64,000 nucleotides of DNA, from contig OY969763.1 of assembly GCA_963702845.1 (NCBI GenBank), forward strand, positions 5,632,001-5,696,000. The letters run 5' to 3'. The DNA is from an uncultured Verrucomicrobiae bacterium (GTDB lineage Bacteria; Verrucomicrobiota; Verrucomicrobiia; Limisphaerales; Palsa-1400). Positions 30,928-64,000 of this stretch are shown in pieces. The position numbers and the translations under genes are program-made. Each line of letters starts with the position of its first letter. The first letter of the stretch is position 1. Under the pieces are notes generated by a model, which searched no databases, had not been told where the DNA came from, and worked only from the letters and a program-made list of their open reading frames with translations.

Positions 30928-31169
30928 AGTTCTTATATTCATCCGCAATGGGCCTTGTGACAAGCGTTGGCCAGTACCCGGTAGCAACTCGGATTGAAAG
31001 CATCGTCAGGGTCACTCATATGAGCGATAGACGATTTTGAGCGGTTTTGACACGTTCAGTCTGAACACTACGGAAACTGCATTCAAAGCACCAATCACCG
31101 CGTACGAGTTAACACTAACGGTTAAAAGTTTGATTTGATTGCCCGTTCAACCAAATCCATTCGGATCCT

Positions 31170-38927: not shown

Positions 38928-40715
38928 GTGCTGACCGATTTGCTGGAGTTTTCTCGAAACCGCAACGCGGTTCGAATTTGTCTCGCGTTGTTTTTGCTGT
39001 GCACTGGCCATGCGGCGGCAGCGAGCCGACCGAATATCGTTGTTATTCTTGCCGACGACCAGGGATGGGGTGATCTGAGCGTTTCCGGCAACACTAATCT
39101 CCACACGCCGAACGTCGACGCGTTTGCGAAACAAAGTGCGTCGTTCGATCGTTTCTACGTGTGTCCCCTCTGTTCACCCACTCGCGCGGAGTTTCTCACC
39201 GGCCGATATCATCCACGCGGCGGTGTACGCGGTGTTTCGACAGGACAAGAACGGTTGAATCTCGACGAGAAAACAATTGCCGACGCCTTCGAGGCCGCGG
39301 GTTACGCGACCGGAGCATTCGGCAAATGGCACAATGGCAGCCAATGGCCGTATCATCCCAACGCGCGCGGTTTCGATGAGTTCTTCGGCTTCACGTCCGG
39401 TCATTGGGGCGAGTATTTTGATCCGCCGCTCGATCACAACGGCCAACTGGTTCGCGCAAAAGGTTACGTTGCGGATGTTTTCACCGATCATGCGATCGAC
39501 TTCATTGAGAAAAATAAAGAGCGGCCGTTCTTTTGTTATCTTCCATTCAACACGCCGCATTCGCCTTTTGCCGTGCCGCCGGAATATTGGGAACGGTTCA
39601 AAAATGAACCGATCGCGATGCGTGCGCGAGCCGGTGATTCCGAGAACATCAACCAAACGCGGTGCGTGCTGGCCATGTGCGAAAACATCGATTGGAACGT
39701 CGGCCGCGTGTTGGGCAAACTCGACGAACTGAAGCTGGCCGAAAATACGATCGTGATTTATTTCTCCGACAACGGGCCGGCCGGATATCGTTGGAACGGC
39801 GATATGAAAGGCAGGAAAGGGCTCACTGATGAAGGCGGCGTCCGCGCTCCGTTCTTCATCCGTTGGCCGGGAAAAATCATACCCGCGACGGTGCGCGAAA
39901 TCGCAGGAGCGATCGACCTGTTGCCCACGCTCACTTCGATGGCGGGAATTAGCCGGGTTGGCGACAAAAAATTGGATGGAAAGGATCTGTCGCAGCTACT
40001 TGAGGGCCGCGCGGCCAACTGGCCCGACCGACTGATTTTTTCCTGCCGCAATGAAAAAGTCAGTGTTCGCTCGCAACAATATCGTCTCGATAGCGCCGGC
40101 GCGTTGTTCGACATGGCGGCCGATCCCGGCCAGCGCGTAGATTTGGCGCATGAGAAGCCCGAACTTGCCGCGAAGCTTTCTCGCGCAGTGGCTGATTGGC
40201 GCAAGGAAGTTTTTGCAACGCCGTCTTACGCCGTGGATGACCGTCCGTATCCGGTTGGTTACGCGGTGTTCCCGCGCACGCCGCTGCCTGCCCGGGATGG
40301 CGTGCCGCATGGTGGAATCAAACGCAGCGCGAACGCGCCGAATTGCTCATATTTCGTCAACTGGACCAGCCCGGAAGATGCGATGACGTGGGACATCGAC
40401 GTGGCCACTGCCGGCGATTATTTCGTCGAGATTCAATATACGTGCCCGATGGCCGACGCTGGTTCCACTGTTCAGCTCGGTTTCAGGGATAGCAAGCTCA
40501 CGGGTAAAGTCACTCCCGGTTGGGACCCGCAGCTTTATACCAATCAGGACACGATCGAGCGAGTTGGTGAATCGCGGATGAAAGAGTTTCATCCACTGAA
40601 CCTCGGAATCATTCATCTGGAAAAAGGCCGTGGTCTGCTGGCGTTGCGCGCACTGGACATCCCAGGCAAAACGGTGATGGACATGCGTCAGATTAATTTG
40701 ACGCTGAAAAAGTGA
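38928..40715 (+). CDS. arylsulfatase (formylglycine-dependent) with C-terminal beta-sandwich
   Basis: PNIVVILADDQGWGD, CSPTRAEFLTG, GKWH, SDNG. Signal peptide present; start approximate (GTG 38928). Confidence 0.92.
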   Translation: MLTDLLEFSRNRNAVRICLALFLLCTGHAAAASRPNIVVILADDQGWGDLSVSGNTNLHTPNVDAFAKQSASFDRFYVCPLCSPTRAEFLTGRYHPRGGVRGVSTGQERLNLDEKTIADAFEAAGYATGAFGKWHNGSQWPYHPNARGFDEFFGFTSGHWGEYFDPPLDHNGQLVRAKGYVADVFTDHAIDFIEKNKERPFFCYLPFNTPHSPFAVPPEYWERFKNEPIAMRARAGDSENINQTRCVLAMCENIDWNVGRVLGKLDELKLAENTIVIYFSDNGPAGYRWNGDMKGRKGLTDEGGVRAPFFIRWPGKIIPATVREIAGAIDLLPTLTSMAGISRVGDKKLDGKDLSQLLEGRAANWPDRLIFSCRNEKVSVRSQQYRLDSAGALFDMAADPGQRVDLAHEKPELAAKLSRAVADWRKEVFATPSYAVDDRPYPVGYAVFPRTPLPARDGVPHGGIKRSANAPNCSYFVNWTSPEDAMTWDIDVATAGDYFVEIQYTCPMADAGSTVQLGFRDSKLTGKVTPGWDPQLYTNQDTIERVGESRMKEFHPLNLGIIHLEKGRGLLALRALDIPGKTVMDMRQINLTLKK

Positions 40716-40720
40716 GTTGG

Positions 40721-41722
40721 TTAGATCGTCTTCACTTTGCCCGCATGCGTTCTGCGGAAAGCATGAAGGCAATCGCCCGTCGAACTGATATATTGCACGT
40801 CGATGTTGTCGCGAGTGACGTGCAGGTGGACAAATCCAAATAGCTTTTCGGCAAAACCACGGCCCGGGCGTTTAATCGCGTATAGTCCGGCGCCACCTCC
40901 GCCGGAGACGACGAAGCTGGTGTTGTAACCTTCCACTTCGAGATGTTGTAGGTTGTGATCGTGGCCTGCCACGAAAAGGGAGATGTTGTTGGCTTTCAAA
41001 AGCGGGCCCCATTCGGCAATGAGACGTTTGCTGTCGCCCTTAGTCCCTGCGCTGAACATCGGATAATGGCTGATGACCCAACGCCATGGGGCGCGCGTTT
41101 CTTTTTTAAGCTCTGCTTCGAGGAAACGTTTCTGCTCAATTTTTTCCTGTGGCGTCAATGCGCCTTCGAACATATTCGCATCGAGGAAAATAATTTTGAG
41201 GATGGGATTTTGTGAGTCGGGAAATTCCACCGCATACCATTTGGCCGGCATCTTCCAGCGTGAAGATGGATTGCTCTTGGCGTAGTCCAGTTGCATCTGC
41301 GCTTTGGCTGGTCCTTGTTTGGCGTCGTAAGATGGGCCGTAATCGTGATTGCCCAAACAGGCGTAAAATGGGCAGGCCAGATGTTCTTTGGAGTACATGG
41401 CCTCGAACCCCGGGAGAAAGCGTTTCGGGGTCATTTTGCCGTAGAAGTTGTCGCCCAAAGCAAACACCGCGGTCGGCGGGTGCTTCAATTTTTTTGCGAC
41501 TTCCGCCATGGCATAAGCCACGGCGCGCTGGTTGACATTTCCAGTGCCAAAGTCTCCGAGCGCGAGGAAATCCAGTCCACCATCGGCAAATTCAGTTGAG
41601 GGAGGTTGTGCGGCAAGTTTCCAGGCGCCTGTCATTGTCAACAAACTGCTGCTGAAAAAAATCGTCTTCTTGACCGCTTCACGGCGACTGATGTAACTGT
41701 CGTTGGGCGGCGTTGGTTTCAT
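40721..41722 (-). CDS. Tat-exported metallophosphoesterase (purple acid / tartrate-resistant acid phosphatase type)
   Basis: SRREAVKK Tat signal; GDFG, GDNFY, GNHD, HYP and GHDHNLQH motifs. Confidence 0.9.
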   Translation of the reverse strand: MKPTPPNDSYISRREAVKKTIFFSSSLLTMTGAWKLAAQPPSTEFADGGLDFLALGDFGTGNVNQRAVAYAMAEVAKKLKHPPTAVFALGDNFYGKMTPKRFLPGFEAMYSKEHLACPFYACLGNHDYGPSYDAKQGPAKAQMQLDYAKSNPSSRWKMPAKWYAVEFPDSQNPILKIIFLDANMFEGALTPQEKIEQKRFLEAELKKETRAPWRWVISHYPMFSAGTKGDSKRLIAEWGPLLKANNISLFVAGHDHNLQHLEVEGYNTSFVVSGGGGAGLYAIKRPGRGFAEKLFGFVHLHVTRDNIDVQYISSTGDCLHAFRRTHAGKVKTI

Positions 41723-41773
41723 AGCTTTGCTTACACGAACGAATTACAACATCGGTCCGCCGTCGTGCATAGT

Positions 41774-43045
41774 TCATTTTGCCGCACGCTTGCCGAGAAC
41801 CGCCGAGGCCGGTTCACGCACAACTATCAAAGAGTCAGCGCGTGTGCGTTCCCTGCCGCCGGGGATCGAATTGCATATCTTGCCCTGCTTCCAGAAAGTC
41901 GACGAGCCGCCGCCGTCCATATTCATCGCCTCGCGGCAGCCGAGGGTGGCCATAAACTCGGCCAACTCACGGGAATTCATCCCCATCGAGAGGTGTTTTT
42001 GTCTTCCGTCCACCACGACCATGAAGAAATAGCGATCGTTGAAGCCAATGGCCGTACGCGGATTCCGGTGCTGAATGACCGCGCCTGCGTCAAATGTCTC
42101 CAGCGGTTTGCCGTCGCTCACCACCGGGAACACGCCGTGGCACGCGGTGACCACGTTTTGCAGTGACGGAGAGGTCGATAGTTCGATTTGAATGGCGTCG
42201 CCGGCGTGAATGGCGCTTGCTTTGGGAGCCGCTTGCGCGCTGAAGCTCAGAACACAAACGGTGTTCGACAAACCTGAATTGCCCGCAGGATTGATGGCTT
42301 TGACTTGCATGACGCGGGTTTCGCCAACGCGCCAGGACAAACTCGAGTGCGCTGCGCTTTCAAGAACCAGTTCCAGATGATTTGTAGCGCGCGTTTGCTT
42401 GCCCAGCGTATGTGTGAAAAGCACGACCTCGCCCGCGAAACATTCGCGATTCAAGCCAATGGCCACTTTCTCGCCGCCCGGCAATTTTGCGTTGTAGGAC
42501 GATTTAATGTCGCCGATGTGCATCGACCTGTCCTCGTTGACCCAAAAACTGAACTTCGATGGAGCGCCGACGACTTCACCATCGACGATTACCATAGCCT
42601 CATGCGCGTCTTTGCCGATGCCGCGTGGCGCACCCATGTATGGGTTGGCGGTGCGAATGCAAAATCCCGCGTTGATTGCGACCAATGGCTCGCCCCTGGA
42701 TTTCGGAAATGAGCTCGCAATGGCGGATACAGGCGCCACGCCGAAAATTTCATTGTGCGCGAGATTCTCCGCAAGTCGTAATTCCTTGTGTGTGCGGTCG
42801 AGGCGCGCGATGTGAATCGACCACGGGTCGCCGCTGTTCCAGTTCGACATTTGCAAAGTAGCGTAATCGAGCCCGGGAACAACGGCCGTGTAATTCAGAG
42901 CCAGATTGTGTTTTGTCGCAGCCGATGCGACGTCGGCCCTACCAGCCAATAAAATGATGAGAAGGTATCCAACCGCCCTAGCCCAAGACCCGGTGGCCGA
43001 GGAGAATCCGTCAGGGCGCCGGCCAATTCGAAAGACAAGCTTCAT
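41774..43045 (-). CDS. phosphodiester glycosidase (NAGPA) family protein, secreted
   Basis: AINAGF, RNPRTAIG, VVVDGRQ, AMNMDGGGSST. ATG 43045 chosen as start. Confidence 0.9.
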   Translation of the reverse strand: MKLVFRIGRRPDGFSSATGSWARAVGYLLIILLAGRADVASAATKHNLALNYTAVVPGLDYATLQMSNWNSGDPWSIHIARLDRTHKELRLAENLAHNEIFGVAPVSAIASSFPKSRGEPLVAINAGFCIRTANPYMGAPRGIGKDAHEAMVIVDGEVVGAPSKFSFWVNEDRSMHIGDIKSSYNAKLPGGEKVAIGLNRECFAGEVVLFTHTLGKQTRATNHLELVLESAAHSSLSWRVGETRVMQVKAINPAGNSGLSNTVCVLSFSAQAAPKASAIHAGDAIQIELSTSPSLQNVVTACHGVFPVVSDGKPLETFDAGAVIQHRNPRTAIGFNDRYFFMVVVDGRQKHLSMGMNSRELAEFMATLGCREAMNMDGGGSSTFWKQGKICNSIPGGRERTRADSLIVVREPASAVLGKRAAK

Positions 43046-43735
43046 TACGTGGACAGTTTGGCTTTTACACAGTGACAGGTCTATCGTCCAAAAGAGTGAT
43101 GACATTTCCATAGGCCTGTTTTTCGTTGTCGTGTTGCGGGTCGCGAAGTGCCTGAGCGGGCTGACTTTGCCGTGGTGTCGACGGGCTGTCTCCGGGCAAG
43201 GCAGTGCTGCTTCACAATTTGGGTGAAGCGGGACGATGGTATCGGTTTGTGGTCCTGTGCTCATGATTTGGTTCCTGTCATTTTGGTGCGAATTACCGCT
43301 AATTCGGCAGACGATCCGTTTTTTGCGTAAAGGGTGTTCATTTTTTATTTTGGTGCAAACCGCTGCAAGCGAGTGCAAACCACTGCAAATGGGCTGCAAA
43401 AACCTTTTTTACATTTACGATGAGCGTTATTGCCCAGCGGTTCCGCCGTCGCCGAGGCTATGCGGACGGGTGGATTAGGTCAGGGAGTAGCTACTCGTCA
43501 AAAAATGTAGGGAAAGGAGGGAAGTCAGGGAAAGAAATGGCACTTTTTTGTGACGAAAACGTGCGTTGTTACGCGGTTGGCATGAAAGTTGAGGGGGTGT
43601 TCAACGCGAAGGCGCGAAGAAACAATGGCGCAGAAAGTAAACTCAAAATCAATACGCGAACGGCCTGCGTCCAGCCCAGCTCACAGAACACACAGATCAC
43701 AAAGAGAGATGGGGATTCATAAAATCACGCCAGCC

Positions 43736-45271
43736 TCAGTGGTCTTTTTTCCGATCATTGCTGATGGACTCTGGCGCATCTGTTTCAGTTTCCTTCACTT
43801 CGGTTCGCAACCGGGCAAGTTCTTTTTGTAATTGCTCCTGAATGCTCGCGTAACTTTTCTCGCCGTAAACATTGTTCAGTTCGTTCGGATCTTTCTTTTG
43901 ATCGATTAACGTCCAGTAATTGATGTCCGGTTCGTAAAAGTGGAACAACTTGTAGCGATCCGTCACCACGCCGTAATGCTTGCGGACTTTGTGGGGGCCG
44001 GGGAACTCGTAGTAATGGAAGTAGAAGCTGGTTCGCCAATCGCTGGGTGCCGTTCCGCGCAGGATCGGCATAAGGCTGCGACCTTGCATGTCGTCAGGAA
44101 CTTTGACGCCAGCGGCATCCAACAATGTTTCCGGATAATCGAGCACTGACACCATCGCTTTGCTTCGTGTGCCTGGTTTAATAACGCCGGGCCATCGGAT
44201 CATCAACGGAGTGGTGAGTGATTCCTCGTAAATCCAGCGTTTATCGAACCAGCCGTGTTCGCCGAGGTAAAACCCTTGGTCGGACGAATAAACAACGATG
44301 GTGTTGGTGGCGAGCCCTTCATCGTCCAAATACTTCAACAAACGTCCGACGCTTTCATCGACGGACAAAATCGTCCCAAGATAATCATGCATGTAGCGTT
44401 GGTAACGCCAACGCACGAGATCTTTGCCGGTCAGGTTTTCCGACTGCATTTTGGCATTACGCGGTTCGTAGTAGGCGTCCCAAACTTTCTTTTGTTCCGG
44501 GGTGAGTGAGGGTGGAGAAGTGAACTTTGCATCGCGTGCGGTGAACGTTTTCGCGATGGTCATGTCCTGCTCATGTTCAGCGCGACCGCGGCCTGAGTAA
44601 TCGTCAAACAATGTTTCAGGTTCGGCGAACTTTCTGTCCTTGTTCCAATTGAGATTTTTGAGATTGGGCGACCATTCGCGATGCGGCGCTTTGTGTTGGG
44701 CCATCAACAGGAATGGCTTTGATTTGTCGCGGTTTTTCAGCCATTCGATCGAAAAATCAGTAATGAGATCGGTGACATAGCCCTGGTGTGTCACTTTCTG
44801 TCCGTTCCGAATCATCGGTGGGTTGTAATAAATTCCCTGGTCGGGAAGTATTTCCCAGTGATCGAAGCCGGTCGGATCGGACACGAGGTGCCACTTGCCG
44901 ATGATCGCGGTCTGGTAACCGGCTTTTTGCAGCAGCTTGGGAAAGGTCTGTTGTGCGCCATTGAAGGTGTTGCCGTTATTGCGATAGAAGCCATTCAGAT
45001 GGCTGTATTTGCCGGTCAGAACAGTCGCACGACTCGGGCCGCAAATCGGATTGGGAACGAGACAACGTTCGAACAACATTCCTTCTTTGGCGATTCGATC
45101 GAGGTTGGGAGTTTCGACGAGTTTAAGCGGATTGTTATACGCGCTGATGGCCTGTCGTGTGTGATCATCTGTGAATATGAACAGGATATTCGGGCGCTGC
45201 GCGGCTTGTGTGTTTTGGAATAAAAGCGAGAGGACGATGGCGGCAACAAGCCGGCAGGTTTGCATTCTCAT
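43736..45271 (-). CDS. sulfatase (N-acetylglucosamine-6-sulfatase-like subgroup, DUF4976-like C-terminus)
   Basis: [49 protein letters not shown]. Confidence 0.92.
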
Positions 45272-45377
45272 AAAGGATCGAATCGAATTTTTAACGATTC
45301 GTATGGTACTCGGAGGCGTTGTTTGCGACTATCACTCAACCGAGTGATCAGCTTGTTGTATTGGCCGGAAAATCAAC

Positions 45378-46043
45378 TCAAACGAACGGGCGCAACTCTG
45401 CTTTTGCGACGCTCTCCGCATTGCGCAGATAGCGTGTCGCAGCTTCGGTGCGCGAACGGACGTGAAGCTTCTCGTAGATGTGACGCAAATGAGTCCGAAC
45501 AGTATCGAAACTGACGGAGAGCCGGTCGGCAATTTCCTTATTGGCATAGCCCTGGGTCAGCAATTCGAGAATTTCTTCTTCACGGGCGGTTAAGCCGGCG
45601 TCTTTGATAGTCACCGGAGCAGGGCGGCGGAATGATGCGATGACTTTTCGTGCGATTTCGCCGGTCATCGGCGCGCCGCCGTTCAAAACATCCTGAATGG
45701 CGCCGAGGAGTTCGGCTGGAGTCGTGCGCTTGAGCAGATAACCGCTCGCGCCTGATTGCAAGGCGGATAATACGCGATCGTTGTCGGCATGCACGGTCAC
45801 AATCAAAATCTGGACCTGCGGCATGGATTGTTTGAGTCGCGCGGTGCATTCGATGCCCGACATACCCGGCAGATTAATATCCATCAGCACCACGTCCGGG
45901 ACGGCTTGCGGCACCTTTTTAAGAGCATCTTCACCCGATCCGCATGCGCACACACATTGAAATCCTGGAGAGGCGTCAATGAGTTTTGCCCAATTTTCAC
46001 GGATTCCGCGAGTGTCTTCGACAAGGGCAACTTTGATTCTCAT
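45378..46043 (-). CDS. NarL/LuxR family response regulator
   Basis: REC domain (VEDT...LMDINLPG...YLLK) plus LuxR HTH (LTAREEEIL...NKEIA...TVRTH...IYEKLHV). Confidence 0.95.
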   Translation of the reverse strand: MRIKVALVEDTRGIRENWAKLIDASPGFQCVCACGSGEDALKKVPQAVPDVVLMDINLPGMSGIECTARLKQSMPQVQILIVTVHADNDRVLSALQSGASGYLLKRTTPAELLGAIQDVLNGGAPMTGEIARKVIASFRRPAPVTIKDAGLTAREEEILELLTQGYANKEIADRLSVSFDTVRTHLRHIYEKLHVRSRTEAATRYLRNAESVAKAELRPFV

Positions 46044-46130
46044 GGTAGGGAGGAATCCGCGTCGTGCGGTTCGGATATGGGTTAGTGTGCGCAATTTGAT
46101 CTTCGGCGAATATCGCTCAAACGGGTGACA

Positions 46131-49127
46131 TTATGATACAGGCGTCTTTTGGCCCACCAACGGTAGTATAAACGAGATGCGTGAGCCTTTTCCCGGCTCA
46201 GTAACGATTTCGGCGCGGCCCTGAATGGTTTCCATTCGCGCCAACATATTTCCCAGGCCGTTACCGCGTTCGGCTTCTTCGGTGAAACCGCATCCGTTAT
46301 CATCGACGGTGACGTTCAGTCGGTTCTCTCGCCACGCTATGCGCAACCAGACTTCGGCGGCGCCGGAATGTTTTACCGCATTGTTCAGGGCTTCCTTGAC
46401 GCTGAGGAAAAGATTGTGCCGCTGTTGCGCCGTTACCGGTATCGATGGCAAATTTTCCATCATGTCAATGCGGCAGCTCACGTTAGCAGCGCGCAGGAAT
46501 TCGTGAGCATGATCGGCAAGGTAACTGGCTAAATCAGGCAAAGAATCGTTCTTCGGGTTAACCGTCCACACAATTTCATCCATCGCCGTGGCGACCTGCC
46601 GCGCTTTTTCGGTGATGCCATCGAGTTGCGAGCGGATTTCAGTCGGCGGCACGTCCCCACCCGCCAATTCGCTCAACAGCATGATTTCAGTAATACCTGA
46701 GCCGAGATCATCGTGAAGATCTTGCGCGATGCGGCGACGCTCTTTCTCCATTGCTTGCTGCATTTCCAGGCGTTCCAGTTTTCGCCGCAATTTCGCGCGT
46801 CCGACAAAATGCGCTCCTGTTCCAACCATGCTGAGGACGAGCAGTCCGACCGTCGTCTGGAACCAGAGGGTTTCATAGTAATGGAGTTTGACGATCAGTG
46901 TCACGGGATTGGCTGTTTCGGTCCAATCATTGGCGCTGCCCGAGCAGATGACGTGGAAACGATAGGTCCCCGGCAGAAGGGCGCCGTAGGTCGCTTTGCG
47001 TTGGGCCCCGGCGTCGACGAACCGATCGTCCTGGCCCTCCAGTTGGTATCTGAACTTGAGTCGTCCCGGTGAATCGGCATCAGCGATCGTATATTGAAAT
47101 TCGACACGCTTCATCCCTGTGTAGATTTCCAGCGGCTTCGTCAAAGAGAATGATTGCTCCGCCTCGTCAACTTTCACTGCTTCAATCAGCACGGGCAACA
47201 AGGGACGATTTCGCAGCAATTCTTTTGGATTGAATGACAGAATGCCGTGTCCCACCGGAAACCAAAGGCGTCCATCCGGTGACTGCGCCGCGGATGGTTG
47301 GCCGCTGCCGACACTCCAATTCTCCACCTCGGACGCCGCGACTTGGATTAAGGGTAATGGTGTGCCACCGCGCCTGTTTGCAATTAAAGCATTTTTCGCG
47401 ACGCCAAACACACCGTCATTGGAACTGAGCCACAGGATTCCATTGGAGTCCTCGATAATCGAATGCACCCAGTCACTTGGGAACCCGTCCGTGCGCGACC
47501 AATAGCGCATGTTACCGCCTTTCATACGGTAAAGGCCTCGGGCCAGGGACCCAATCCAAAGCGCGCCGTCATCATCGCGATAAAGAGTCTCCACAGCCGG
47601 CCGTTGAAACTTCGCCGAGTGCTCGACCTTATCTTTGTGGATCCGGAAAAGACCACCGCTGCGCGTGCCGACCCACAATTCGTTGCGACCCGCGGCGATG
47701 GCGCGCACTTCTTTATCGTGTCCAGGATTTCCTAAAGTGTACGTTTTGATTTCATTACCACGCTTGCGTATCACCGCGCCGATGGTGCCGAACCACAAAG
47801 CGCCCTCCCGGTCCTGGAATAGCGCGGGCACAGGTTGGCCATGGATGACGGATTCCAGTTCTGGCTTCAGCCGATCATTTTCCAGCCTGAACAATCCCGA
47901 CAATGTGCCAAACCAAATTTGATTATCGCGGTCCTCGAAGATTGCCATCACGGTTGCGTTGGAACTACGCGAGGAAATATCGAACCGTGAAAAAACTTCT
48001 TCTTTGAATCGGTAGATACCATTTCCGTCGGTGCCGACCCACACCGTGCCGTCGTGCGCCACGCAGACGGTTTGCGGTACGTTTTCCTGCGTGACGGTTG
48101 GAAGAGATAAAAGGTTAAATAGCCGCGGTTTGATCTGGTGCAAATTGCCCGCGACAGTTCCCGCCCAAACCAAGCCTTCATTATCTTCATAAAAGCAGGA
48201 AACACCGCCGAGTGAACGCGACCTTTTTGGGGTAATCTCCCGCCAACCGGTTCCGGGAATAAGGCAATGAATTGCGCCATTGCGCGTGCCGGCCCACAAC
48301 CTGCCGGCGTGATCTTCGATCATGGCGCCGATGGAGGTTTGCGGACAAGCACCCGATGCATCAACCCATTCAAGGCGAAATTGATTGTTGGTTTCTAGCA
48401 GGCGTCCAACCGTTGTTCCAGCGGTCACCCAAAAACCGCCAAAGCGGCTGGCACAGTGAATGTCAGGTTTAATTTGCTTGTTGATGTCATCACCTAGCTC
48501 GATGACTTGATCTTGCTTAATGATGTAAGCATCCGAAGATCCCGCGACGAGCAGAGTTCCGTGCGGATCGCAAATCAGCCTTCGACGTCCTTTTCCTGCC
48601 GGCACATGCACTGTCGTGATTTTGCCATTCGCCATTCGGGTGATCTCATTGGTGCCGAACAGAGCCCAGATGGTCCCGCTTGAATCGCTGACCAACGATT
48701 TGACAACAGACTCCGGCGCGTTCTCCACCGGTTGAATTTCTGTCAGCCTTGCTTCGGTGCAACGAAATAAGCCTTTGGCAGTGCCGAGCCATAAATTTCC
48801 GTTGGTTTCGGCGAGCAACGTGGTGACTTTGTTGCTCTGGAGCGCAGGAATCGAATCCGCGTTCAGCAGGTTGAAACGCACGCCATCGAATCGCACCAGA
48901 CCTTTTTCAGTCGTCAGCCATAGATAGCCGTTCGCACTTCGCTGCACGTGGCTGATGACTGCGGCGGGAAGGTCATTGCGCCGGTCCCAACTTTTTAATT
49001 CGAACTGCGGCTCAACCGGATTGGCGACCACATCCGTCGGTATGGAAAATGCGACGAAAAGTGCCAATTGCAGCACCGAAAGGACTCTCAGGACAGCAAC
49101 GCGCATTTGTCGAATTATAAATATCAA
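46131..49127 (-). CDS. sensor histidine kinase with periplasmic two-component-regulator beta-propellers, Y_Y_Y domain and HisKA_3/HATPase
   Basis: Repeated DxxGxLWxGT propeller blades; FRYQLEG...YGALLPGTYRF; TM helix; ERRRIAQDLHDDLG; EALNNAVKH, DDNGCGF, GNGL. Confidence 0.94.
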   Translation of the reverse strand: MIFIIRQMRVAVLRVLSVLQLALFVAFSIPTDVVANPVEPQFELKSWDRRNDLPAAVISHVQRSANGYLWLTTEKGLVRFDGVRFNLLNADSIPALQSNKVTTLLAETNGNLWLGTAKGLFRCTEARLTEIQPVENAPESVVKSLVSDSSGTIWALFGTNEITRMANGKITTVHVPAGKGRRRLICDPHGTLLVAGSSDAYIIKQDQVIELGDDINKQIKPDIHCASRFGGFWVTAGTTVGRLLETNNQFRLEWVDASGACPQTSIGAMIEDHAGRLWAGTRNGAIHCLIPGTGWREITPKRSRSLGGVSCFYEDNEGLVWAGTVAGNLHQIKPRLFNLLSLPTVTQENVPQTVCVAHDGTVWVGTDGNGIYRFKEEVFSRFDISSRSSNATVMAIFEDRDNQIWFGTLSGLFRLENDRLKPELESVIHGQPVPALFQDREGALWFGTIGAVIRKRGNEIKTYTLGNPGHDKEVRAIAAGRNELWVGTRSGGLFRIHKDKVEHSAKFQRPAVETLYRDDDGALWIGSLARGLYRMKGGNMRYWSRTDGFPSDWVHSIIEDSNGILWLSSNDGVFGVAKNALIANRRGGTPLPLIQVAASEVENWSVGSGQPSAAQSPDGRLWFPVGHGILSFNPKELLRNRPLLPVLIEAVKVDEAEQSFSLTKPLEIYTGMKRVEFQYTIADADSPGRLKFRYQLEGQDDRFVDAGAQRKATYGALLPGTYRFHVICSGSANDWTETANPVTLIVKLHYYETLWFQTTVGLLVLSMVGTGAHFVGRAKLRRKLERLEMQQAMEKERRRIAQDLHDDLGSGITEIMLLSELAGGDVPPTEIRSQLDGITEKARQVATAMDEIVWTVNPKNDSLPDLASYLADHAHEFLRAANVSCRIDMMENLPSIPVTAQQRHNLFLSVKEALNNAVKHSGAAEVWLRIAWRENRLNVTVDDNGCGFTEEAERGNGLGNMLARMETIQGRAEIVTEPGKGSRISFILPLVGQKTPVS

Positions 49128-49245
49128 TAGCTCGGCTTACAAGCTTCGCAGCGTCATGGTCGGTCACTCAAATGAGCGATGGACGCTGCTCGCGGCACTG
49201 TGACACGCTGGTACGTCCAGTTACCACACCGCCAAGCCAACAAAC

Positions 49246-56541: not shown

Positions 56542-56679
56542 TTTGTGTCATCCTCACTCATCTGAGCGATGGACACATTTGGCAGCGATTGAGACAATGT
56601 GCTGTCCCGATGACCTGTTTAGAAAATTCCCAAAGTCGAACGTCGACCTCGCCAAAGGGTTCATGCCTTGCCCAATGAT

Positions 56680-59600
56680 ATGACCACCCAACTATCGCAT
56701 CTCTCGAAAACTTTTACCGCCAGTGCATTTGCCCTGATTCGCCAAAGGACCTGCCAGGTTGTAACCTTGGGGTTGCTACTGTCGGCATTGTCAGCTGCTG
56801 CACAACCGGCCATTAGCACGCAACCGCTCAACCGCACCAACAACATCAGCGATCTCGCACAGTTTAGCGTAGTTGCCACGGGCGCCGCACCGGTGACTTA
56901 CCAATGGCGACGTAATGGTGCGAATATCAACGGCGCGACTGGGAGTGCTCTCAGTCTATTGGTCACTAACATCGGTAATGCTGGCACCTACAGCGTTGTG
57001 GTAACGGACAGCACAGCTCTTACCACTACCAGTTCTGATGCTGTTCTTTCCGTATTCTTCGCTGACCGAACAAGGTTTACGCACTGGAACTTTAACAGCA
57101 CTACATCGGACAATTCTGTCACTACCGGTGTCAGCAGTCCGGCAATCGGCTCCGGCGTGCTCACCGTTGTTGGCACGGGCATTACCGCCAATGGATTCAA
57201 CACAGGTTCCGCTTCAGACCCTAATTTGACGGATAATTCAAGCCGTCGTTGGAACAATTATGCTTCAACCGTGCCCAACAAAACCGGCGGCGCGAAATAC
57301 GCGGTTAGCACAGCGGGCTTCCAGAATGTTGCCGTCAGCGGTGAACTGTGGCTGGCGCAGCGCAGCTCCGCCTATTGGCGCGGGCAATACAGCATTGACG
57401 GCGGCACGAATTGGATTGATCGACTAGTCATTAGTAGGCACAGCGTGTCGCTTCAGAACTTCTTTTATTTTTCCGATGATTTGACTGGCGTCGACGGCGT
57501 TGCGGACAACTCAAACTTTGTTTACCAGATCGTTGGTGAATACGAAAGCACCGCCACTGGTAGCGGAGCCGCTGCTTACGTCTCTTGCGATCCCGCTTCG
57601 ACTTTCAACCCCACCAGTTCTCTTTTCGGGTGGGACCTTTTCAGCGTGTTCGGCACCGCAATTTCTCAACAGCCCGCGATCACTCAGCAACCGCGAAGTC
57701 ACACTAATTATTTAAACACAACCGGCGGATTCACCGTGAAAGCGACCGGTGGGAATCTCTCCTACCTGTGGTATTTCAACAATTCTCCAATTAATTCTGG
57801 CACTGGTTCGGATTTGGTTATAACCAACGTCCAATATTCCAATGCCGGCACCTATCACGTCGTCGTTTCCAATACCGCCGGAACTGTCACCAGCGATGAT
57901 GCGATCCTGACGGTCGAAGACGTCGTGCTCCCGCAAGGTGATCGTTTTTGGTCCGCCGATGGCGTAAACGCGGGTGTTAGCGGCGGCAATTGGGACACTA
58001 ATACACCGAATCGCTGGGGACAAAATATCGCTGGTCCGTTCAATCTCCAGTGGAACAACACCCGCCTCGATAACGCGATATTTCCTCCCGGTTCCGGCGT
58101 GATCACCAACTCGACGGGCGTAGCCGTGAACACCATCACGCTTACCAACGCTCCGAGTGCAGCCTACGCTTTTAACGGTGCTGGCAAAATCAGTTTTCTC
58201 GGGCCCGACTCTTCCATCTACGTCGCCGGCGCAAACAACTCGAACGCCAGCAATCTTCTGTCCAGCACCTGCGAATTCGCCGGTTCGATCATTACCAAGA
58301 ATGGAGGCGGCCGCTTGCATCTCGATAATACCAACAGCAACATCGGCCGCTGGGTTGTTAATCAGGGTTCAATTACCGGCAGCGCCGCGGCAAATCTTTT
58401 CGGGATTGCTCCCTCGCAATCGCTTTCAAATTTCATCACGCTCGATGGCGGTGGATTTGGATTCATCGCTTCCTCCGCGATGTCTCTGGGCACCAATCGC
58501 GGTATTTACCTTGGTCTGAACGGTGGCCAACTCGGCAATCAGGGCACTGGCGGCATCATCACAATTGACGCGCCGATCACCGGCCCCGGTTCACTGAACT
58601 TCCCCGGCAATACAGAATGGCCCAGCCAACTCCAGGGCGATAATTGCATCTTCATCGTAAGCAACACGAACAACAATTATCAAGGGATCACGCGGATTGC
58701 GACCGCCGAAGTCCGTCTCGGCGCCAATCAGGTGTTTCCAGCGACCACCACGCTGATGGTCAGCAATCTCTCTCTCAATGGCCGACTCAATTTGAACGGC
58801 TTCAATCAGACGGTGGCCACAGTGATTCTTGATAGCACCAGCGGCAACGCTCGTATCATTGACACTGTCGGAACAGGCAGTCTCACTGCAGCGCAATTCG
58901 ATTTGCGCCGTAGCGCTACGGCTACAAATGTGAGCGCGATTCTTGCCGGTCCCGGTACACTCACCAAAACGACTAGCGGCAATATCACTCTCGCCGCCCC
59001 CAACACCTACAGCGGCGATACATTCCTGCAGGCCGGAACGCTCACGCTCAACGCTTCGGGGCGTTTCGGCAATGGCGTCGGCACTCTCCACCTGCAAGGC
59101 GCTACGCTCACCGTTCCAGAATCACGGACCGATGCGACCGCTATTATCAATCCCACTTCCCTCGAGGCCGAGACGCTCGTGCAGGGGACCGCGAACGCCA
59201 CGAATAATATCCAGTTTATCCACGGCGGGACGTGGACGATGGGTGGAGGCGTTCTATACGTGTATAACCCGAATACGAACGGCTTCTTGTTTCAGGTTGC
59301 TTTAACGAACACGTTCAATTTTTCGCTTCCGATCGATATTGGGAACGGGTGCCACCTCGTTTCTTACAATCCTGCTGGAAGCGATCAAACCTTTAGCGGC
59401 GGCCTTTCCGGAGCGGGCGTATTCAGACGCGCTGTTTCGACAGGCAGCGGCGGACGCACCATCTTTAACGGGGATAATACCTACAGCGGCGGGACCATAG
59501 TTAGTTCTGGCACGTTGCTTGCGAATAACCAAAGCGGCGCCAGTGCGACAGGCAGTGGTACGGTCACTGTCACCGCAGCTGGTGTTCTCGGCGGAACAGG

Positions 59601-60525
59601 CACAATCAGCGGCCCAGTCGCTGTTACCAACGGCGGCAATCTTTTGGCTGCTGCTGCTGGCGGAGTTTTAACCTTGCAAGGCGGCCTTGATATGAGCGGC
59701 AGCGGAACAAACACATGGGAACTGGCCGCCTTGCAAGATAATAGCACCGGCATTGCCGGAACTGGTTTCGGCCAAATTGTCCTGACTGCTGGCGAATTAC
59801 AGTTGGGCGGCAGCTCTGTTCTGTCGCTGAAATTCTCCGGCGGCACTGCGCCAGATGGCTCCGTGCCGTTCTGGCAATCCACCCACCAGTGGAAAATCAT
59901 CAGTCTGATTGGCGGCCTGAACACAGCCAACGCCTCGTTTGCTTCTATTGCCAATGGAAGCTACAGCGCGGGTAACTTCTCAACTGCTGTTGATGGAAGT
60001 GGCAACATCATTCTCACGTTTACGGCGTCAGTTCAGTCGTCACCCACCATTACGAGTCACCCGCAAAGCCGGACCAATGTTGCTGGAACAACGGCGTCTT
60101 TCACGGTTGCTGCGAATGGCTCGCAGCCTCTCACGTATGCTTGGTTCCGCAGTACGGCTCCGTTTACGCCCATTCCGGGGGCGACAAACACCACCTTTAC
60201 TTTGGCGAACGTGCAGGCGGCAAGTGCGGGCAGTTACTTTGCTCGTGCTTACAATGGTCTCGGAAATGATACAAGCCAGCTTGCATCGCTTACAGTTGTG
60301 CCGTCACCATCGCTTCAACCCTTGTCCGGAGCCGGAACCGCGAATGTCGTGCTGAGTTGGAATACAGTCGCGGGCAACCAATACCAGGTGCAATACAATA
60401 CGAATCTCTCCACCGCTAACTGGATTCCGGTGACCACATTTGTGGGCGCTGGCGGCAACGTTTCGGTGACCAATCATCCACCCGTTGGTGATCCGCAGCG
60501 TTACTTTCGCGTGATTATCTGGTAA
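56680..60525 (+). CDS. secreted Ig / jelly-roll / autotransporter-associated beta-strand repeat protein with C-terminal 'YFR' domain
   Basis: Signal peptide; Ig units; NTYSGGTIVSSGTL repeats; ends LSWNTVAGNQYQVQYNTNLSTANW...RYFRVIIW. Confidence 0.9.
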   Translation: MTTQLSHLSKTFTASAFALIRQRTCQVVTLGLLLSALSAAAQPAISTQPLNRTNNISDLAQFSVVATGAAPVTYQWRRNGANINGATGSALSLLVTNIGNAGTYSVVVTDSTALTTTSSDAVLSVFFADRTRFTHWNFNSTTSDNSVTTGVSSPAIGSGVLTVVGTGITANGFNTGSASDPNLTDNSSRRWNNYASTVPNKTGGAKYAVSTAGFQNVAVSGELWLAQRSSAYWRGQYSIDGGTNWIDRLVISRHSVSLQNFFYFSDDLTGVDGVADNSNFVYQIVGEYESTATGSGAAAYVSCDPASTFNPTSSLFGWDLFSVFGTAISQQPAITQQPRSHTNYLNTTGGFTVKATGGNLSYLWYFNNSPINSGTGSDLVITNVQYSNAGTYHVVVSNTAGTVTSDDAILTVEDVVLPQGDRFWSADGVNAGVSGGNWDTNTPNRWGQNIAGPFNLQWNNTRLDNAIFPPGSGVITNSTGVAVNTITLTNAPSAAYAFNGAGKISFLGPDSSIYVAGANNSNASNLLSSTCEFAGSIITKNGGGRLHLDNTNSNIGRWVVNQGSITGSAAANLFGIAPSQSLSNFITLDGGGFGFIASSAMSLGTNRGIYLGLNGGQLGNQGTGGIITIDAPITGPGSLNFPGNTEWPSQLQGDNCIFIVSNTNNNYQGITRIATAEVRLGANQVFPATTTLMVSNLSLNGRLNLNGFNQTVATVILDSTSGNARIIDTVGTGSLTAAQFDLRRSATATNVSAILAGPGTLTKTTSGNITLAAPNTYSGDTFLQAGTLTLNASGRFGNGVGTLHLQGATLTVPESRTDATAIINPTSLEAETLVQGTANATNNIQFIHGGTWTMGGGVLYVYNPNTNGFLFQVALTNTFNFSLPIDIGNGCHLVSYNPAGSDQTFSGGLSGAGVFRRAVSTGSGGRTIFNGDNTYSGGTIVSSGTLLANNQSGASATGSGTVTVTAAGVLGGTGTISGPVAVTNGGNLLAAAAGGVLTLQGGLDMSGSGTNTWELAALQDNSTGIAGTGFGQIVLTAGELQLGGSSVLSLKFSGGTAPDGSVPFWQSTHQWKIISLIGGLNTANASFASIANGSYSAGNFSTAVDGSGNIILTFTASVQSSPTITSHPQSRTNVAGTTASFTVAANGSQPLTYAWFRSTAPFTPIPGATNTTFTLANVQAASAGSYFARAYNGLGNDTSQLASLTVVPSPSLQPLSGAGTANVVLSWNTVAGNQYQVQYNTNLSTANWIPVTTFVGAGGNVSVTNHPPVGDPQRYFRVIIW

Positions 60526-60568
60526 CATCGTCTGCAACGATTGAGCGGGCCTATGCAGGCCAAACAAC

Positions 60569-63500: not shown

Positions 63501-64000
63501 ACACGCTGACCTTCAGTCTCGGCACCGGCGCGCCGCCAACCGCCACCCTCAATTCCAGCACGGGCGTATTCAGTTGGACGACGACGACTGCCGACACGAA
63601 TTCTGTTCACAACATCACCATAAAGGTCACCGACAACGGTTCACCGCCGATGAGCGCCAGTGGAAGTTTTTCCGTGACAGTGCTTCCTCCTCCGCCTGCG
63701 AACAGCTCGCCACTGCTTTATCCGATCGACAACCAATCCATCCATGCAGGCGCGACATTGACGTTTACGAACCTTGCCTACGACGCCGACACCAACGACG
63801 TTCTGACTTTCAGCCTTGATCCTGGCGCTCCATCCGGCGCGACCATTCATCCGGTGACCGGCGTCTTTTCGTGGACGCCTCCCGATTCTGAAAGTAATAC
63901 TGTCAAATCTGTCACCGTCCGCGTCAGCGACAATGGTCAGCCGTCCAAAAGCGCTTCCAGCACATTTTCGGTCACGGTTTTGCCTCGTTTGCCGAACAAT
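60569..64000 (+). CDS. second giant SpoIID/LytB-domain protein (paralogue of 49246-56541); runs off the right edge
   Basis: Manual translation from ATG 60569 (MRIRAFVALTALTVSLG...FFDSATGYALQPDEIVA). The same frame still reads sensibly at 63.4-64.0 kb. It has the same SpoIID motifs, followed by cadherin-like repeats. Absent from the ORF track because no stop codon falls in the window. Confidence 0.92.
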   Translation, partial: MRIRAFVALTALTVSLGLPVSNVRAGETPQEVDLQFFDSATGYALQPDEIVAQPHRDGATRQRFNRAHMRADGHAKVALEHGRHTISANLSAYHPLSGELQVRDAFPYKVRFLLDPIEKPIELQPDNITVRQRDDATLFQGFIVSDDTGEPLREVRIKSEPSGVKTVTDARGFYQLYIPLQSPANLVVEKPGYRTEERQQLELSPRGDWTFNFRLERGTGKQTLDERSPLRLAVEQDPPTETTQTSPASTVAPQPLLITPKIPTIGTNATLRVPRNIRVQDDTNIYYVTMNFYEKHVLPHEWIASWNSNALNAGSVPVRCYAIARVNARAPDSDFDICGNSDCQNFKVNVSSTSTDRAVDYTSGYVVVNSSGNVPSTEYSAENNSLGKPCGDGFAAPTSGCLYDPICAGHDRSGHGRGMCQRGTQRWGDGNNGYPVRDWIWMVNHYYSTLTLVKGSELIIGDNVESTSGDCNVRACAGGGIGSGVSCPLLTSKSAGQTGVIIGGPILVTNDTKGFTWFQVRWNDANSTTGWSCENYLDRIVSLPVTPASFTATAISGSQINLSWIDSSNIEAGFYIERAPSSTGPWLEIATISASVTTYSDRNLYPGSTWYYRMRSYNSSGNSSYTAAVSATIPNSVAPTLAAVQNRAVAPNTLITFTNTATAPDNVKLITDFAAFQSETGNGAILFETPNTSTSTSTFLNDVPEMDLSVTTDTHPNGGQASGNVLMVQCQFTNSNNAWLRLTTAGPTWFADPVIDLAKKIRFDMYSDLSVQVALGCRETTTPVGTAIGSDGGTSGAIEWVGVTGVSGTAPVCTRTVTSNTWTTLTFDFTNEPIRNFSGGNGVLSTASGLGVLEHLAIVPKSGNNIYTFYLDNFAVLTPRVFTYSFGTGAPTNATLNASTGIFSWMPTAAQSPSTNQISIIVTDNSIPALRATNSFVVTVGQSLANSPPLLNPIDNRTVYAGTTVVVTNSAYDPNPSDTLTFSLGTGAPPTATLNSSTGVFSWTTTTADTNSVHNITIKVTDNGSPPMSASGSFSVTVLPPPPANSSPLLYPIDNQSIHAGATLTFTNLAYDADTNDVLTFSLDPGAPSGATIHPVTGVFSWTPPDSESNTVKSVTVRVSDNGQPSKSASSTFSVTVLPRLPNN

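Follow-up and report, generated by a model that had tools for sequence, protein, structure and literature searches.

The window, a stretch of 64,000 nucleotides from the genome of an uncultured Verrucomicrobiae bacterium (G000; the other G numbers denote comparison genomes), contains a locus of exported, glycan-acting and regulatory proteins (Table 1). The genes of the sensor kinase and of the giant protein S1 are divergent, with a gap of 118 bp. All genes named by a first-pass annotation are present on the strands given there, and the divergent gap and the convergent arylsulfatase are confirmed as well. Both of its giant SpoIID-headed proteins, S1 and S2, stand, but it missed a third exported protein between them (1285 aa), which has no recognised enzyme head. 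The unit runs further than annotated, on the left to about 31,012 and on the right to a prepilin-like gene just beyond the window.

Table 1. Features of the locus (positions in the window).
Feature	Position	Strand	Remarks
FxLYD-like exported protein, 173 aa	30466..30987	-	divergent from giant; NF038353 E 3e-4, below cut-off
Operator site, 7-2-7 inverted repeat	31012..31027	+	158 bp before PATR/MBG/Ig giant
PATR/MBG_2/Ig giant, exported	31170..38823	+	two ORFs, 31170-36410 and 36274-38823
Arylsulfatase, signal peptide	38928..40715	+	ORF opens 38832; convergent with phosphatase operon
Tat-exported metallophosphoesterase, purple/tartrate-resistant acid phosphatase-like	40721..41722	-	metal motifs intact; 64-65% to G170
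NAGPA-family phosphodiester glycosidase, signal peptide	41774..43045	-	ORF opens 43399; about 50% to G170
GlcNAc-6-sulfatase-like sulfatase	43736..45271	-	CxPxR motif intact; 79% to G170
Operator site	45332..45347	-	before sulfatase-NAGPA-phosphatase operon
NarL/LuxR-type response regulator	45378..46094	-	likely start 46043
Operator site	46113..46128	-	between kinase and regulator
Reg_prop/Y_Y_Y/HisKA_3/HATPase_c sensor kinase	46131..49127	-	53% to G170
Sigma-70-like kinase promoter	49114..49142	-	10/12 consensus matches; such sites not above chance in region
Operator site	49164..49179	+	faces S1, abuts weak -35 hexamer
S1, 2431 aa	49246..56541	+	signal peptide, SpoIID/SleC-type head, Ig stalk
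Operator site	56554..56569	+	before PATR/Ig protein 56668..60525
Ig/PATR exported stalk protein, 1285 aa	56668..60525	+	RFYR-type C-terminal domain; 49% to G170
S2, 1310 aa	60569..64000	+	runs 501 bases beyond window

The signal peptide of S1 is followed by transthyretin-like pre-domains, a flexible linker (a low-confidence segment of the predicted model, residues 253–266), the catalytic domain (271–454) and an SH3b domain (456–539). After these come an fn3 domain, a CBM-like insert (661–885), an Ig stalk of more than 1,400 residues and a C-terminal domain of ~345 residues. Domain matches comprise SpoIID (PF08486, residues 285–365), CarboxypepD_reg, fn3 and seven Ig_3 stretches. S2 has an S1-like head (74.5% over 945 aa), three He_PIG domains and an RFYR-type C-terminal domain.

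A single-sequence PDB search with the head gave no match, and profile and fold searches were needed to place it. Its fold matches SpoIID of C. difficile (5I1T; Z 17.9, rmsd 2.8, 168 residues aligned) and SpoIID/LytB of B. anthracis (4RWR; Z 14.2), with which it also has in common the catalytic glutamate, the GHG-G-Q and YY motifs and two cysteines matching C140/C146. Glu299 (codon 50140–50142) aligns to C. difficile E101 (5TXU), the counterpart of the catalytic glutamate E88 of B. subtilis, and is invariant in 68/68 homologues. E101 is essential in C. difficile SpoIID, and SpoIID requires earlier amidase action (available text of PMC6221140). The SH3b domain matches an endolysin domain with Z 9.2. 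Unlike SpoIID/LytB, the heads of S1 and S2 carry a Cys-rich loop and long stalks and do not keep the His zinc ligands: of the four ligands of SpoIID, His134 and His145 (C. difficile numbering) are absent. The assignment to SpoIID made by the first-pass annotation is upheld by fold, glutamate and Pfam cut-off but not by TIGR02669, which the heads fail with 48.6 and 48.4 against 83.3 bits because ~95 residues of the classical domain are replaced by the short Cys-rich loop. Sequence and model together describe each head as a compact SpoIID fold that keeps the catalytic glutamate, is joined to an SH3b domain and is predicted to cut peptidoglycan.

The arrangement of S1 also resembles the clostridial SleC zymogen, in which a pre-domain, a flexible linker and a compact SpoIID-type catalytic domain are followed by a wall-binding domain. 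Residues 134–457 of S1 match residues 1–329 of prepro-SleC (9H68) with Z 17.4 and an rmsd of 4.5 over 264 residues, the pre-domain included; this Z is near that of SpoIID, the identity is 14–18% (14% in the direct comparison), and 9H68 is absent among the profile-search matches listed. S1 adds to the SleC plan the SH3b and CBM-like domains, the Ig stalk and the export-type C-terminal domain, and its host is Gram-negative and presumably non-sporulating. SleC is activated by proteolysis and prefers cortex, according to the available part of PMC6021603.

The PATR/MBG_2/Ig giant ends in an S1-type C-terminal domain. Its split into two ORFs by a frameshift near 36,270 is likely an assembly error; lepA is likewise split, in three, in the same assembly. 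The S1-type C-terminal domain is common to 27 proteins of the genome, has no Pfam match and gave only atlas matches under 0.9. The RFYR-type tail is found on 84 proteins, belongs to no NCBIfam family and gave only weak, FN3-like PDB matches. Neither S1 nor S2 matches PF18962 (Por_Secre_tail), and a profile comparison showed no similarity between the RFYR-type and T9SS tails (hhalign probability 0.2%), so that surface display is something we only infer. The RFYR-type tail would point to an undescribed verrucomicrobial sorting domain.

The NAGPA protein matches PF09992 at 94.5 bits and keeps the PRTA, VDGR and DGGGS motifs (DGGGS at 493–499); its best PDB match is 3OHG. The role of DGGGS and PRTA in NAGPA/DUF2233 enzymes is described in the available text of PMC13474241, and no natural bacterial substrate of these enzymes was found in the literature searched. 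Its action on the teichoic-acid linkage is a conjecture, which would supply a candidate for such a substrate. The phosphatase matches purple/tartrate-resistant acid phosphatase with E 3e-21. The operon's sulfatase, which the first-pass annotation counted among the wall-degrading members, has the GlcNAc-6-sulfatase 5G2V as its best PDB match (E 2e-163). Its closest relatives of solved structure remove sulfate from glycans, and the sulfate-bearing group cut by this type is not expected in peptidoglycan, which speaks against a role on walls. The genome carries 59 sulfatase matches, and the presence of a sulfatase alone therefore means little here. The arylsulfatase is possibly co-transcribed with the giant from the site at 31,012, as it starts 104 bp after the giant. 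A hydropathy scan for membrane anchors missed the expected helix of the kinase and is thus uninformative.

The two arms of the locus are joined by an operator, the 7-2-7 inverted repeat TCACTCA-N2-TGAGYGA, with five sites in the window against 0.40 expected matches. They precede S1, the stalk protein between S1 and S2, the regulator, the sulfatase-NAGPA-phosphatase operon and the giant at 31,170; the last of these sites was left out of motif building. The site at 56,554 likely serves S2 as well, judging by the 43-bp gap after the PATR/Ig gene, and from the site between kinase and regulator we infer autoregulation of the latter. The 173-aa protein is possibly a further member. Genome-wide, ten sites score at least 18, of which eight are intergenic (0.9 expected; four of the eight lie outside the motif training set). 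A third SpoIID-type gene, 2.6 Mb away, is also preceded by a site.

The inverted repeat adjoins the -35 element, as in NarL/LuxR regulons, and a -10-like xAxxxT lies 22–25 bases past the operator on the gene side in 25/25 sites and on the other side in 6/25 (background 0.19; four rows of the site table were omitted from this count). Judged from the site sequences, this is activator geometry, and the co-regulation of both arms claimed earlier is thereby supported. A scan of the region for sigma-70 promoters and terminators remained at chance level. The three closest regulators (84, 76 and 74%) have the same recognition helix and their genomes hold 10, 2 and 4 sites, a co-occurrence that makes the NarL-type regulator the candidate binder. 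As far as sequence can tell, the region is a real co-regulated unit, the core of a two-component regulon with an inverted-repeat site before each unit. Since one operator stands before both the lytic-head proteins and the sugar-sulfate and sugar-phosphate hydrolases, one sensor likely switches on the whole kit.

G170, a genome from another family, has orthologues of 8/9 genes in one cluster, in a gene order different from that of G000 and without an orthologue of the arylsulfatase. Of the 12 exact operator sites of that genome (the reversed-pattern control gave 0), 11 are in the cluster; the remaining one is found 37 bp upstream of the gene of NamZ, a peptidoglycan-specific muramidase. The G170 regulon takes in an Amidase_2 gene by adjacency. 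Among the extra genes of the cluster are three sulfatases, two CehA/McbA metallohydrolases, a ribulokinase, a sodium symporter and an M6/M11-like metalloprotease. A 714-aa protein of G170 with only one further homologue was tried as NlpC/P60 on a motif seen by eye, and found no Pfam or PDB support. The gene set recurs in G170, but of 77 GTDB loci with a head homologue none shows the kinase or NAGPA in the flanking sequence retrieved (up to 10 kb). Among 80 metagenome kinase loci, a close relative (L173) repeats the gene order of the window and another (L180) has a head gene beside a distant kinase.

The head itself is found in 14/200 genomes of the order and 1/30 of the family, and the compact SpoIID/SleC-like family numbers 554 clusters at E 1e-30 or better. 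Most homologues stand alone, the single-copy ones often among housekeeping genes. They occur also in Lysobacterales and in Bacteroidota, where they carry a T9SS tail; 6/60 sampled homologues have such a tail and 2/60 an N-terminal Amidase_2, both of the latter having been picked by hand into the sample or noticed before it. The stalked secreted Amidase_2 of G000 co-occurs with the head (6/14 against 4/186 genomes; 0.7 expected). In G170 and L143 an amidase gene adjoins a head gene.

On balance, we read the regulon, from sequence and predicted structures, as one that probably lets the cell hold on to the walls of foreign bacteria, most likely dead ones, and break them down. The propeller sensor would bind a sugar fragment, and the NarL regulator would bind the 7-2-7 site and activate its own gene, the hydrolase operon and the stalk, lytic and prepilin-like genes. 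S1, S2 and the third copy would pass the outer membrane, stand on their Ig or cadherin-like stalks, grip the wall via their SH3b and CBM-like domains and cleave glycan strands already stripped by an amidase, a protease perhaps first removing the SleC-like pre-pro part. NAGPA, phosphatase and sulfatase would remove phospho- and sulfo-groups from wall-linked polymers, and NamZ, AnmK and MurQ, encoded elsewhere, would pass the sugars into metabolism. G000 encodes AnmK, MurQ and a beta-lactamase-family/NamZ fusion, and AnmK is also present in G170. With NamZ under the operator in G170, this resembles the NamZ/AmiE/NagZ/MurQ salvage of Bacillus subtilis and Tannerella forsythia, with the difference that a two-component pair takes the place of MurR and the first cut would come from stalked lytic transglycosylases.

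Several findings count against this foraging reading. Heads are under the operator in only two independent families, and among the 68 head loci for which upstream sequence was available, the G170 copy is the single one with a site. In G000 itself the genes of NamZ and of the stalked amidase lack an operator site, and no site scoring at least 15 lies near its AnmK or MurQ genes. The co-occurrence of NAGPA with the head is not significant (5/14 genomes, 3.4 expected), and the loss of two zinc ligands weighs on the same side. The sites of G105 and G026 stand before sulfatases, prepilin-like genes and PATR proteins and not before the heads of these genomes, and in G272 a near-identical site leads stalk proteins adjoining a GH35 galactosidase. 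The unit may instead be a general forager of particles or biofilm matrix, tuned to sulfated or phosphorylated glycan, with the heads as accessories recruited in two lineages to loosen material rich in cells and with an inducer other than wall material, which is possible but clearly less probable. The core conserved over three families indeed consists of sulfatases, prepilin-like genes and PATR stalk proteins. At 197 kb a paralogous kinase-regulator pair is arranged likewise, together with PATR giants and a sulfatase, and no lytic head accompanies it. The G272 site and the additional sulfatases, metallohydrolases, ribulokinase and symporter of G170 fit as well. Against it, the distal sites lead peptidoglycan enzymes (the third head in G000, NamZ in G170), and a quick tree without bootstrap groups the five heads of the regulon together (SH-aLRT 98), with the unregulated copy of G170 outside.

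The earlier description of the locus as PUL-like holds in part: sensor, glycan-acting enzymes and shared site are co-located, but no SusC/SusD is seen among the annotated genes and the layout is not general. As in Bacteroidota PULs there are a Reg_prop/Y_Y_Y sensor, clustered and apparently co-regulated hydrolases and a BT4656-like GlcNAc-6-sulfatase; a separate HisKA_3 kinase and NarL regulator replace the fused AraC output, prepilin-like H-X9-DG genes and stalk proteins are present, and the members are spread over the genome. Neither a TonB-receptor nor a SusD family turned up when proteins of the window and of the G170 cluster were scanned, a set that took in part of the small ORFs.

A broader version of the wall-digesting reading, a sensor-controlled surface machine that dismantles whole Gram-positive walls, even of live cells or endospores, appears unlikely in its entirety. 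Here protease-activated SleC-like enzymes on long stalks would cut glycan, NAGPA would unhook teichoic acid at its GlcNAc-1-phosphate link and phosphatases would strip phosphates. The symporter, oxidoreductase and ribulokinase of G170 would take up and burn the released pentitol, and export would follow an undescribed C-terminal sorting route by way of the RFYR-type domain of the 84 proteins.

A contact weapon, in which the stalked lytic enzymes attack live neighbours or endospores after the hydrolases have stripped wall polymers, is quite improbable. The long stalks, the SH3b domain and the SleC-like zymogen layout would suit it, as would the metalloprotease and the NlpC/P60-like motif protein of G170 and the homologues in Lysobacterales and Bacteroidota, groups with many members that lyse bacteria. 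However, no immunity gene or delivery system is seen in the window, the exo-acting NamZ under the same site suits scavenging better than killing, and the NlpC/P60 reading found no support, as said above. The need of SpoIID for a prior amidase (PMC6221140, in its available text) also speaks against a weapon.

Remodelling of the cell's own peptidoglycan, be it in turnover, in division or to insert surface structures, with NamZ, AnmK and MurQ recycling the products, is more doubtful still. The head is missing from most relatives, the head protein has no lipobox, homologues end in T9SS tails, and stalks of the S1/S2 type are by estimate far longer than the periplasm is wide. It is favoured by the single-copy homologues among housekeeping genes and by precedents known from parts of two papers: Waddlia SpoIID is a septal enzyme acting on its own septum (PMC6635528) and NamZ serves own-wall turnover in Bacillus (PMC8054146). 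Chance assembly of genes with no shared function, conceivable in a genome so rich in sulfatases and in RFYR- and S1-type-tailed proteins and given the differing gene orders, can practically be dismissed, since the genes have an operator in common and their best-hit orthologues lie together in a genome of another family.

It is not settled which organisms, and which of their enzymes, break down bacterial walls in soil, sediment and sludge; an enrichment study implicates Verrucomicrobia, by abundance only (available part of PMC7511781). A regulon of this kind was not found described in the literature searched, which mostly left out subscription papers. The locus offers a testable set, made up of an operator, the regulator that likely acts on it and a compact SpoIID/SleC-like family that is widespread and has phylum-specific export tails. 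The operator would allow regulons to be read straight from uncultured Limisphaerales genomes. Motif matches in G386, G194, G401 and G128 are read as a repeat and not as a regulon: for the most part they are copies of a single 16-mer, often located at the ends of contigs, in genomes that have no close regulator. A scan of viral contigs for the motif gave one match.

All genes named by the first-pass annotation were found with the domains and orientation it gave, including the 118-bp divergent gap between S1 and the Reg_prop/Y_Y_Y sensor kinase. A 1285-aa Ig/PATR protein between the exported giants S1 and S2 was missing from its list. S1 and S2 are 74.5% identical over their first 945 residues, and S2 ends 501 bases past the window edge. 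The genome (6.03 Mb, a single contig) contains 59 sulfatase, 3 NAGPA (phosphodiester glycosidase) and 3 SpoIID matches, as well as a second Reg_prop kinase-regulator pair, which again has PATR giants, a prepilin-like gene and a sulfatase as neighbours. Gene adjacency by itself is an insufficient case for a unit. Frameshifts are weak evidence for broken genes here because the assembly carries indel errors (lepA is broken into three ORFs).

Positions of the features discussed (in the window unless a contig or locus is named; G000, genome of the window)
Feature	Position	Strand	Remark
S1, 2431 aa	49246-56541	+	
S2, 1310 aa	60569 on		
Ig protein, 4042 aa	15068-27196		
RFYR-type domain, example	60298-60522		
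~345-aa C-terminal domain, example	55501-56538		
Third SpoIID/SleC-type giant	G000:C1:3092378-3102700 (L041, L042)		own operator site
Stalked Amidase_2, 1691 aa	G000:C1:5784370-5789445 (L254:6370-11445)	minus	internal RFYR-type domain
S13 carboxypeptidase	L358:7217-9631		
Beta-lactamase-family/NamZ fusion	L357:10349-12706		
RFYR-tailed Golvesin_C protein	L304:2330-5248 (G105); L305 (G026)		
RFYR-tailed protein, 714 aa	L026:3831-5975 (G170)		
Head gene beside distant kinase	L180:1235-7320		

Judged from its sequence, the region appears to be a real co-regulated unit, bigger than first described. Intergenic gaps share the inverted repeat TCACTCA-N2-TGAG(C/T)GA, with five sites judged real in the window, plus a single stray hit that has one mismatch, against 0.40 matches expected; four window sites, the site of the third head copy, one in the metagenome contig L173 and one in genome G170 were known before the pattern was fixed. 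At a score of at least 18, a matrix trained on four window sites picks out 10 sites genome-wide, 8 of them intergenic; column-shuffled matrices find 1-2. Of the sites outside the training set, one lies in front of the giant at 31,170, one before the prepilin-like gene that follows S2, one before the third head copy and one ahead of a small unknown ORF. A second prepilin-like gene has a weaker site upstream. The 4042-aa protein of the window (~29 I-set Ig stretches, DUF11, P-domain, RFYR-type tail) has no operator site upstream.

The operator adjoins a weak -35 hexamer, and ~17 bases further on there is a -10-like hexamer. This arrangement is found on the gene side of 25/25 sites and on the other side of 6/25 (background 0.19), four rows having been left out of the count: both readings of a site without a clear gene and two G272 sites with poor -10 matches. 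This spacing corresponds to class II activator geometry. In a set of 400 genomes, the closest regulators are those of G170, G026 and G105, and all three have the recognition helix of the window's NarL-type regulator; their genomes carry 10, 2 and 4 sites, respectively, most of the 400 having 0 or 1, and all three encode the head. An identical operator-matching 16-mer recurs near contig ends in G386, G194, G401 and G128 and probably belongs to a repeat or a mobile element. One stretch of a viral contig (L359) matches the extended pattern exactly.

The conserved synteny on which the first-pass annotation would have its unit judged fails around most heads, G170 being the exception. Head homologues are mostly solitary, with the kinase or NAGPA in the retrieved flanks of 0/77 loci, many of these flanks being short contigs. 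The set recurs in G170, from another family, where eight window-gene orthologues lie on a single contig, within ~57 kb and with their order changed (regulator 84% identity, sulfatase 79%, phosphatase 64%, kinase 53%, NAGPA about 50%, PATR protein 49%, and both heads). The window's genes are the best hit for all eight, and only the arylsulfatase lacks an orthologue in the cluster. L173, from a close relative, keeps the window gene order at 84-97%. In a quick tree with all rows kept, one clade (SH-aLRT 98) unites the five heads of both clusters, among them the distant third copy of the window's genome (a frameshift-split protein with, besides the head, ~3058 aa that include PATR and Ig domains); the lone head copy of G170 falls outside it. 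In an unrelated metagenome contig (L180) a head gene lies immediately upstream of a distant Reg_prop kinase and regulator.

Eleven of the 12 exact sites of G170 lie inside the cluster. They precede the regulator, the phosphatase, a sulfatase pair, NAGPA, a CehA/McbA metallohydrolase, two PATR proteins, one head and a metalloprotease-like protein; one leads a prepilin-led run with a second metallohydrolase, symporter, oxidoreductase and ribulokinase, and another a run ending with the sulfatase orthologue. The twelfth stands in front of NamZ, an exo-beta-N-acetylmuramidase described as specific for peptidoglycan fragments (PMC8054146). An Amidase_2 gene begins directly downstream of the S2 orthologue. 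The N-terminal Cys/His motifs of a 714-aa G170 protein, for which one other homologue was found, resemble NlpC/P60 by eye, without Pfam or PDB support.

A head profile of 18 homologues matches solved SpoIID proteins in two pieces, ~95 residues being exchanged for a Cys-rich loop. The AlphaFold model of S1 residues 271-539 (pLDDT 84.6) aligns with SpoIID 5I1T (Z 17.9, rmsd 2.8, 168 aligned) and SleC 9H68 (Z 16.2), its residues 456-539 matching SH3b domains of wall hydrolases (Z ~9). In the longer model (28-545, pLDDT 86.8), which gives Z 16.2 with SpoIID (170 aligned), residues 134-457 align in a single piece with prepro-SleC 1-329 (Z 17.4, rmsd 4.5, 264 aligned), so that the transthyretin-like domain and disordered linker of S1 would occupy the pre-pro position of SleC, whose activation is described as loss of an inhibitory propeptide (PMC6021603, PMC13434707). 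Glu299, invariant in 68/68 head sequences, corresponds in the alignment to C. difficile SpoIID E101, reported as essential in an enzyme requiring earlier amidase action (PMC6221140). Both Cys zinc ligands are present in 63/68 sequences; the two His ligands are not conserved. Residues 661-885 (atlas scores 0.92-0.94 to glycan-binding modules; Pfam SGBP_B_XBD E 0.07) are only a lead to a glycan-binding module.

The head occurs in 14/200 other genomes of the order and 1/30 of the family, and outside the order in Acidobacteriota, Lysobacterales, Bacteroidota and Chlorobi. At a threshold of E 1e-30 there are 554 matching clusters. Tails vary by lineage: the protein ends in a T9SS tail in Flavobacteriaceae and Chlorobi, in Golvesin_C in some Acidobacteriota and in the RFYR-type domain in Verrucomicrobiota, and the last of these shows no detectable relationship to T9SS. 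In a sample of 60 homologues (alternate hits starting at rank 33, and P0018, which was put in by hand), T9SS tails were found on 6 and Amidase_2-head fusions numbered 2, one named from Chitinophaga. The RFYR-type domain (~75 aa) ends 84 proteins of the genome and a ~345-aa domain 27; neither is annotated, and each resembles a lineage-specific module for sorting or anchoring. Signal peptides without lipoboxes, stalks and the tails of homologues predict surface exposure. RFYR-tailed heads are also present in records titled Bifidobacterium or Bifidobacteriaceae (L087, L103, L108, L119) and in one titled Akkermansia (L109); the four included in the tree group with verrucomicrobial copies, and the titles are probably wrong.

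An exported, Ig-stalked Amidase_2 (31% identical to the fused amidase) is encoded 88 kb beyond the window. Such amidases occur in 6/14 head genomes vs 4/186 others (0.7 expected), the six representing five families; related genomes are not independent. NAGPA shows no association with the head (5/14 genomes vs 3.4 expected). The amidase head has 15 copies in G050 and 11 in G199, genomes of the order. A D-Ala-D-Ala carboxypeptidase with fn3 domains and RFYR tail and a NamZ fusion enlarge the genome's set of exported peptidoglycan enzymes.

Foraging on foreign cell-wall material, as first proposed, is the reading we favour, with moderate confidence. A general regulon for sulfated or phosphorylated glycans with the lytic heads as accessories is the main rival, and less likely. 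The window sulfatase is close to BT4656-type GlcNAc-6-sulfatases, a poor fit to plain peptidoglycan. The sites of G105 and G026 precede sulfatases, prepilin-like genes and PATR proteins, their heads being without one, and the G272 site (regulator 64%) precedes stalk proteins adjoining a GH35 enzyme; the site therefore marks a family of glycan-foraging regulons, into which wall enzymes were probably recruited within the lineages of the window and G170. AnmK was not found in G105 and G026 (86-89% complete). In the window's genome no operator site stands at the NamZ fusion or stalked amidase, and none scoring at least 15 near AnmK or MurQ. The window NAGPA retains the DGGGS motif, critical in the human enzyme (PMC13474241); for surface phosphoesterases that carry fused NAGPA domains, teichoic acids are the proposed targets (PMC11488536). 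None of the sources consulted shows cleavage of the teichoic-acid linkage. Attack on live cells is improbable, and remodelling of the own wall, which the first-pass annotation set aside, slightly more so.

With wall foraging as the preferred reading, the unit would work like a PUL coupled to a peptidoglycan salvage route, and belongs to neither as defined. The operator and the SleC-like zymogen layout, modelled here in a widespread exported family, appear to be new, as does the link of the regulon to NamZ and amidases. In G105 and G026, an RFYR-tailed protein with Golvesin_C, fn3 and a weak Amidase_3 match ends just before the operator site leading the prepilin-like genes.
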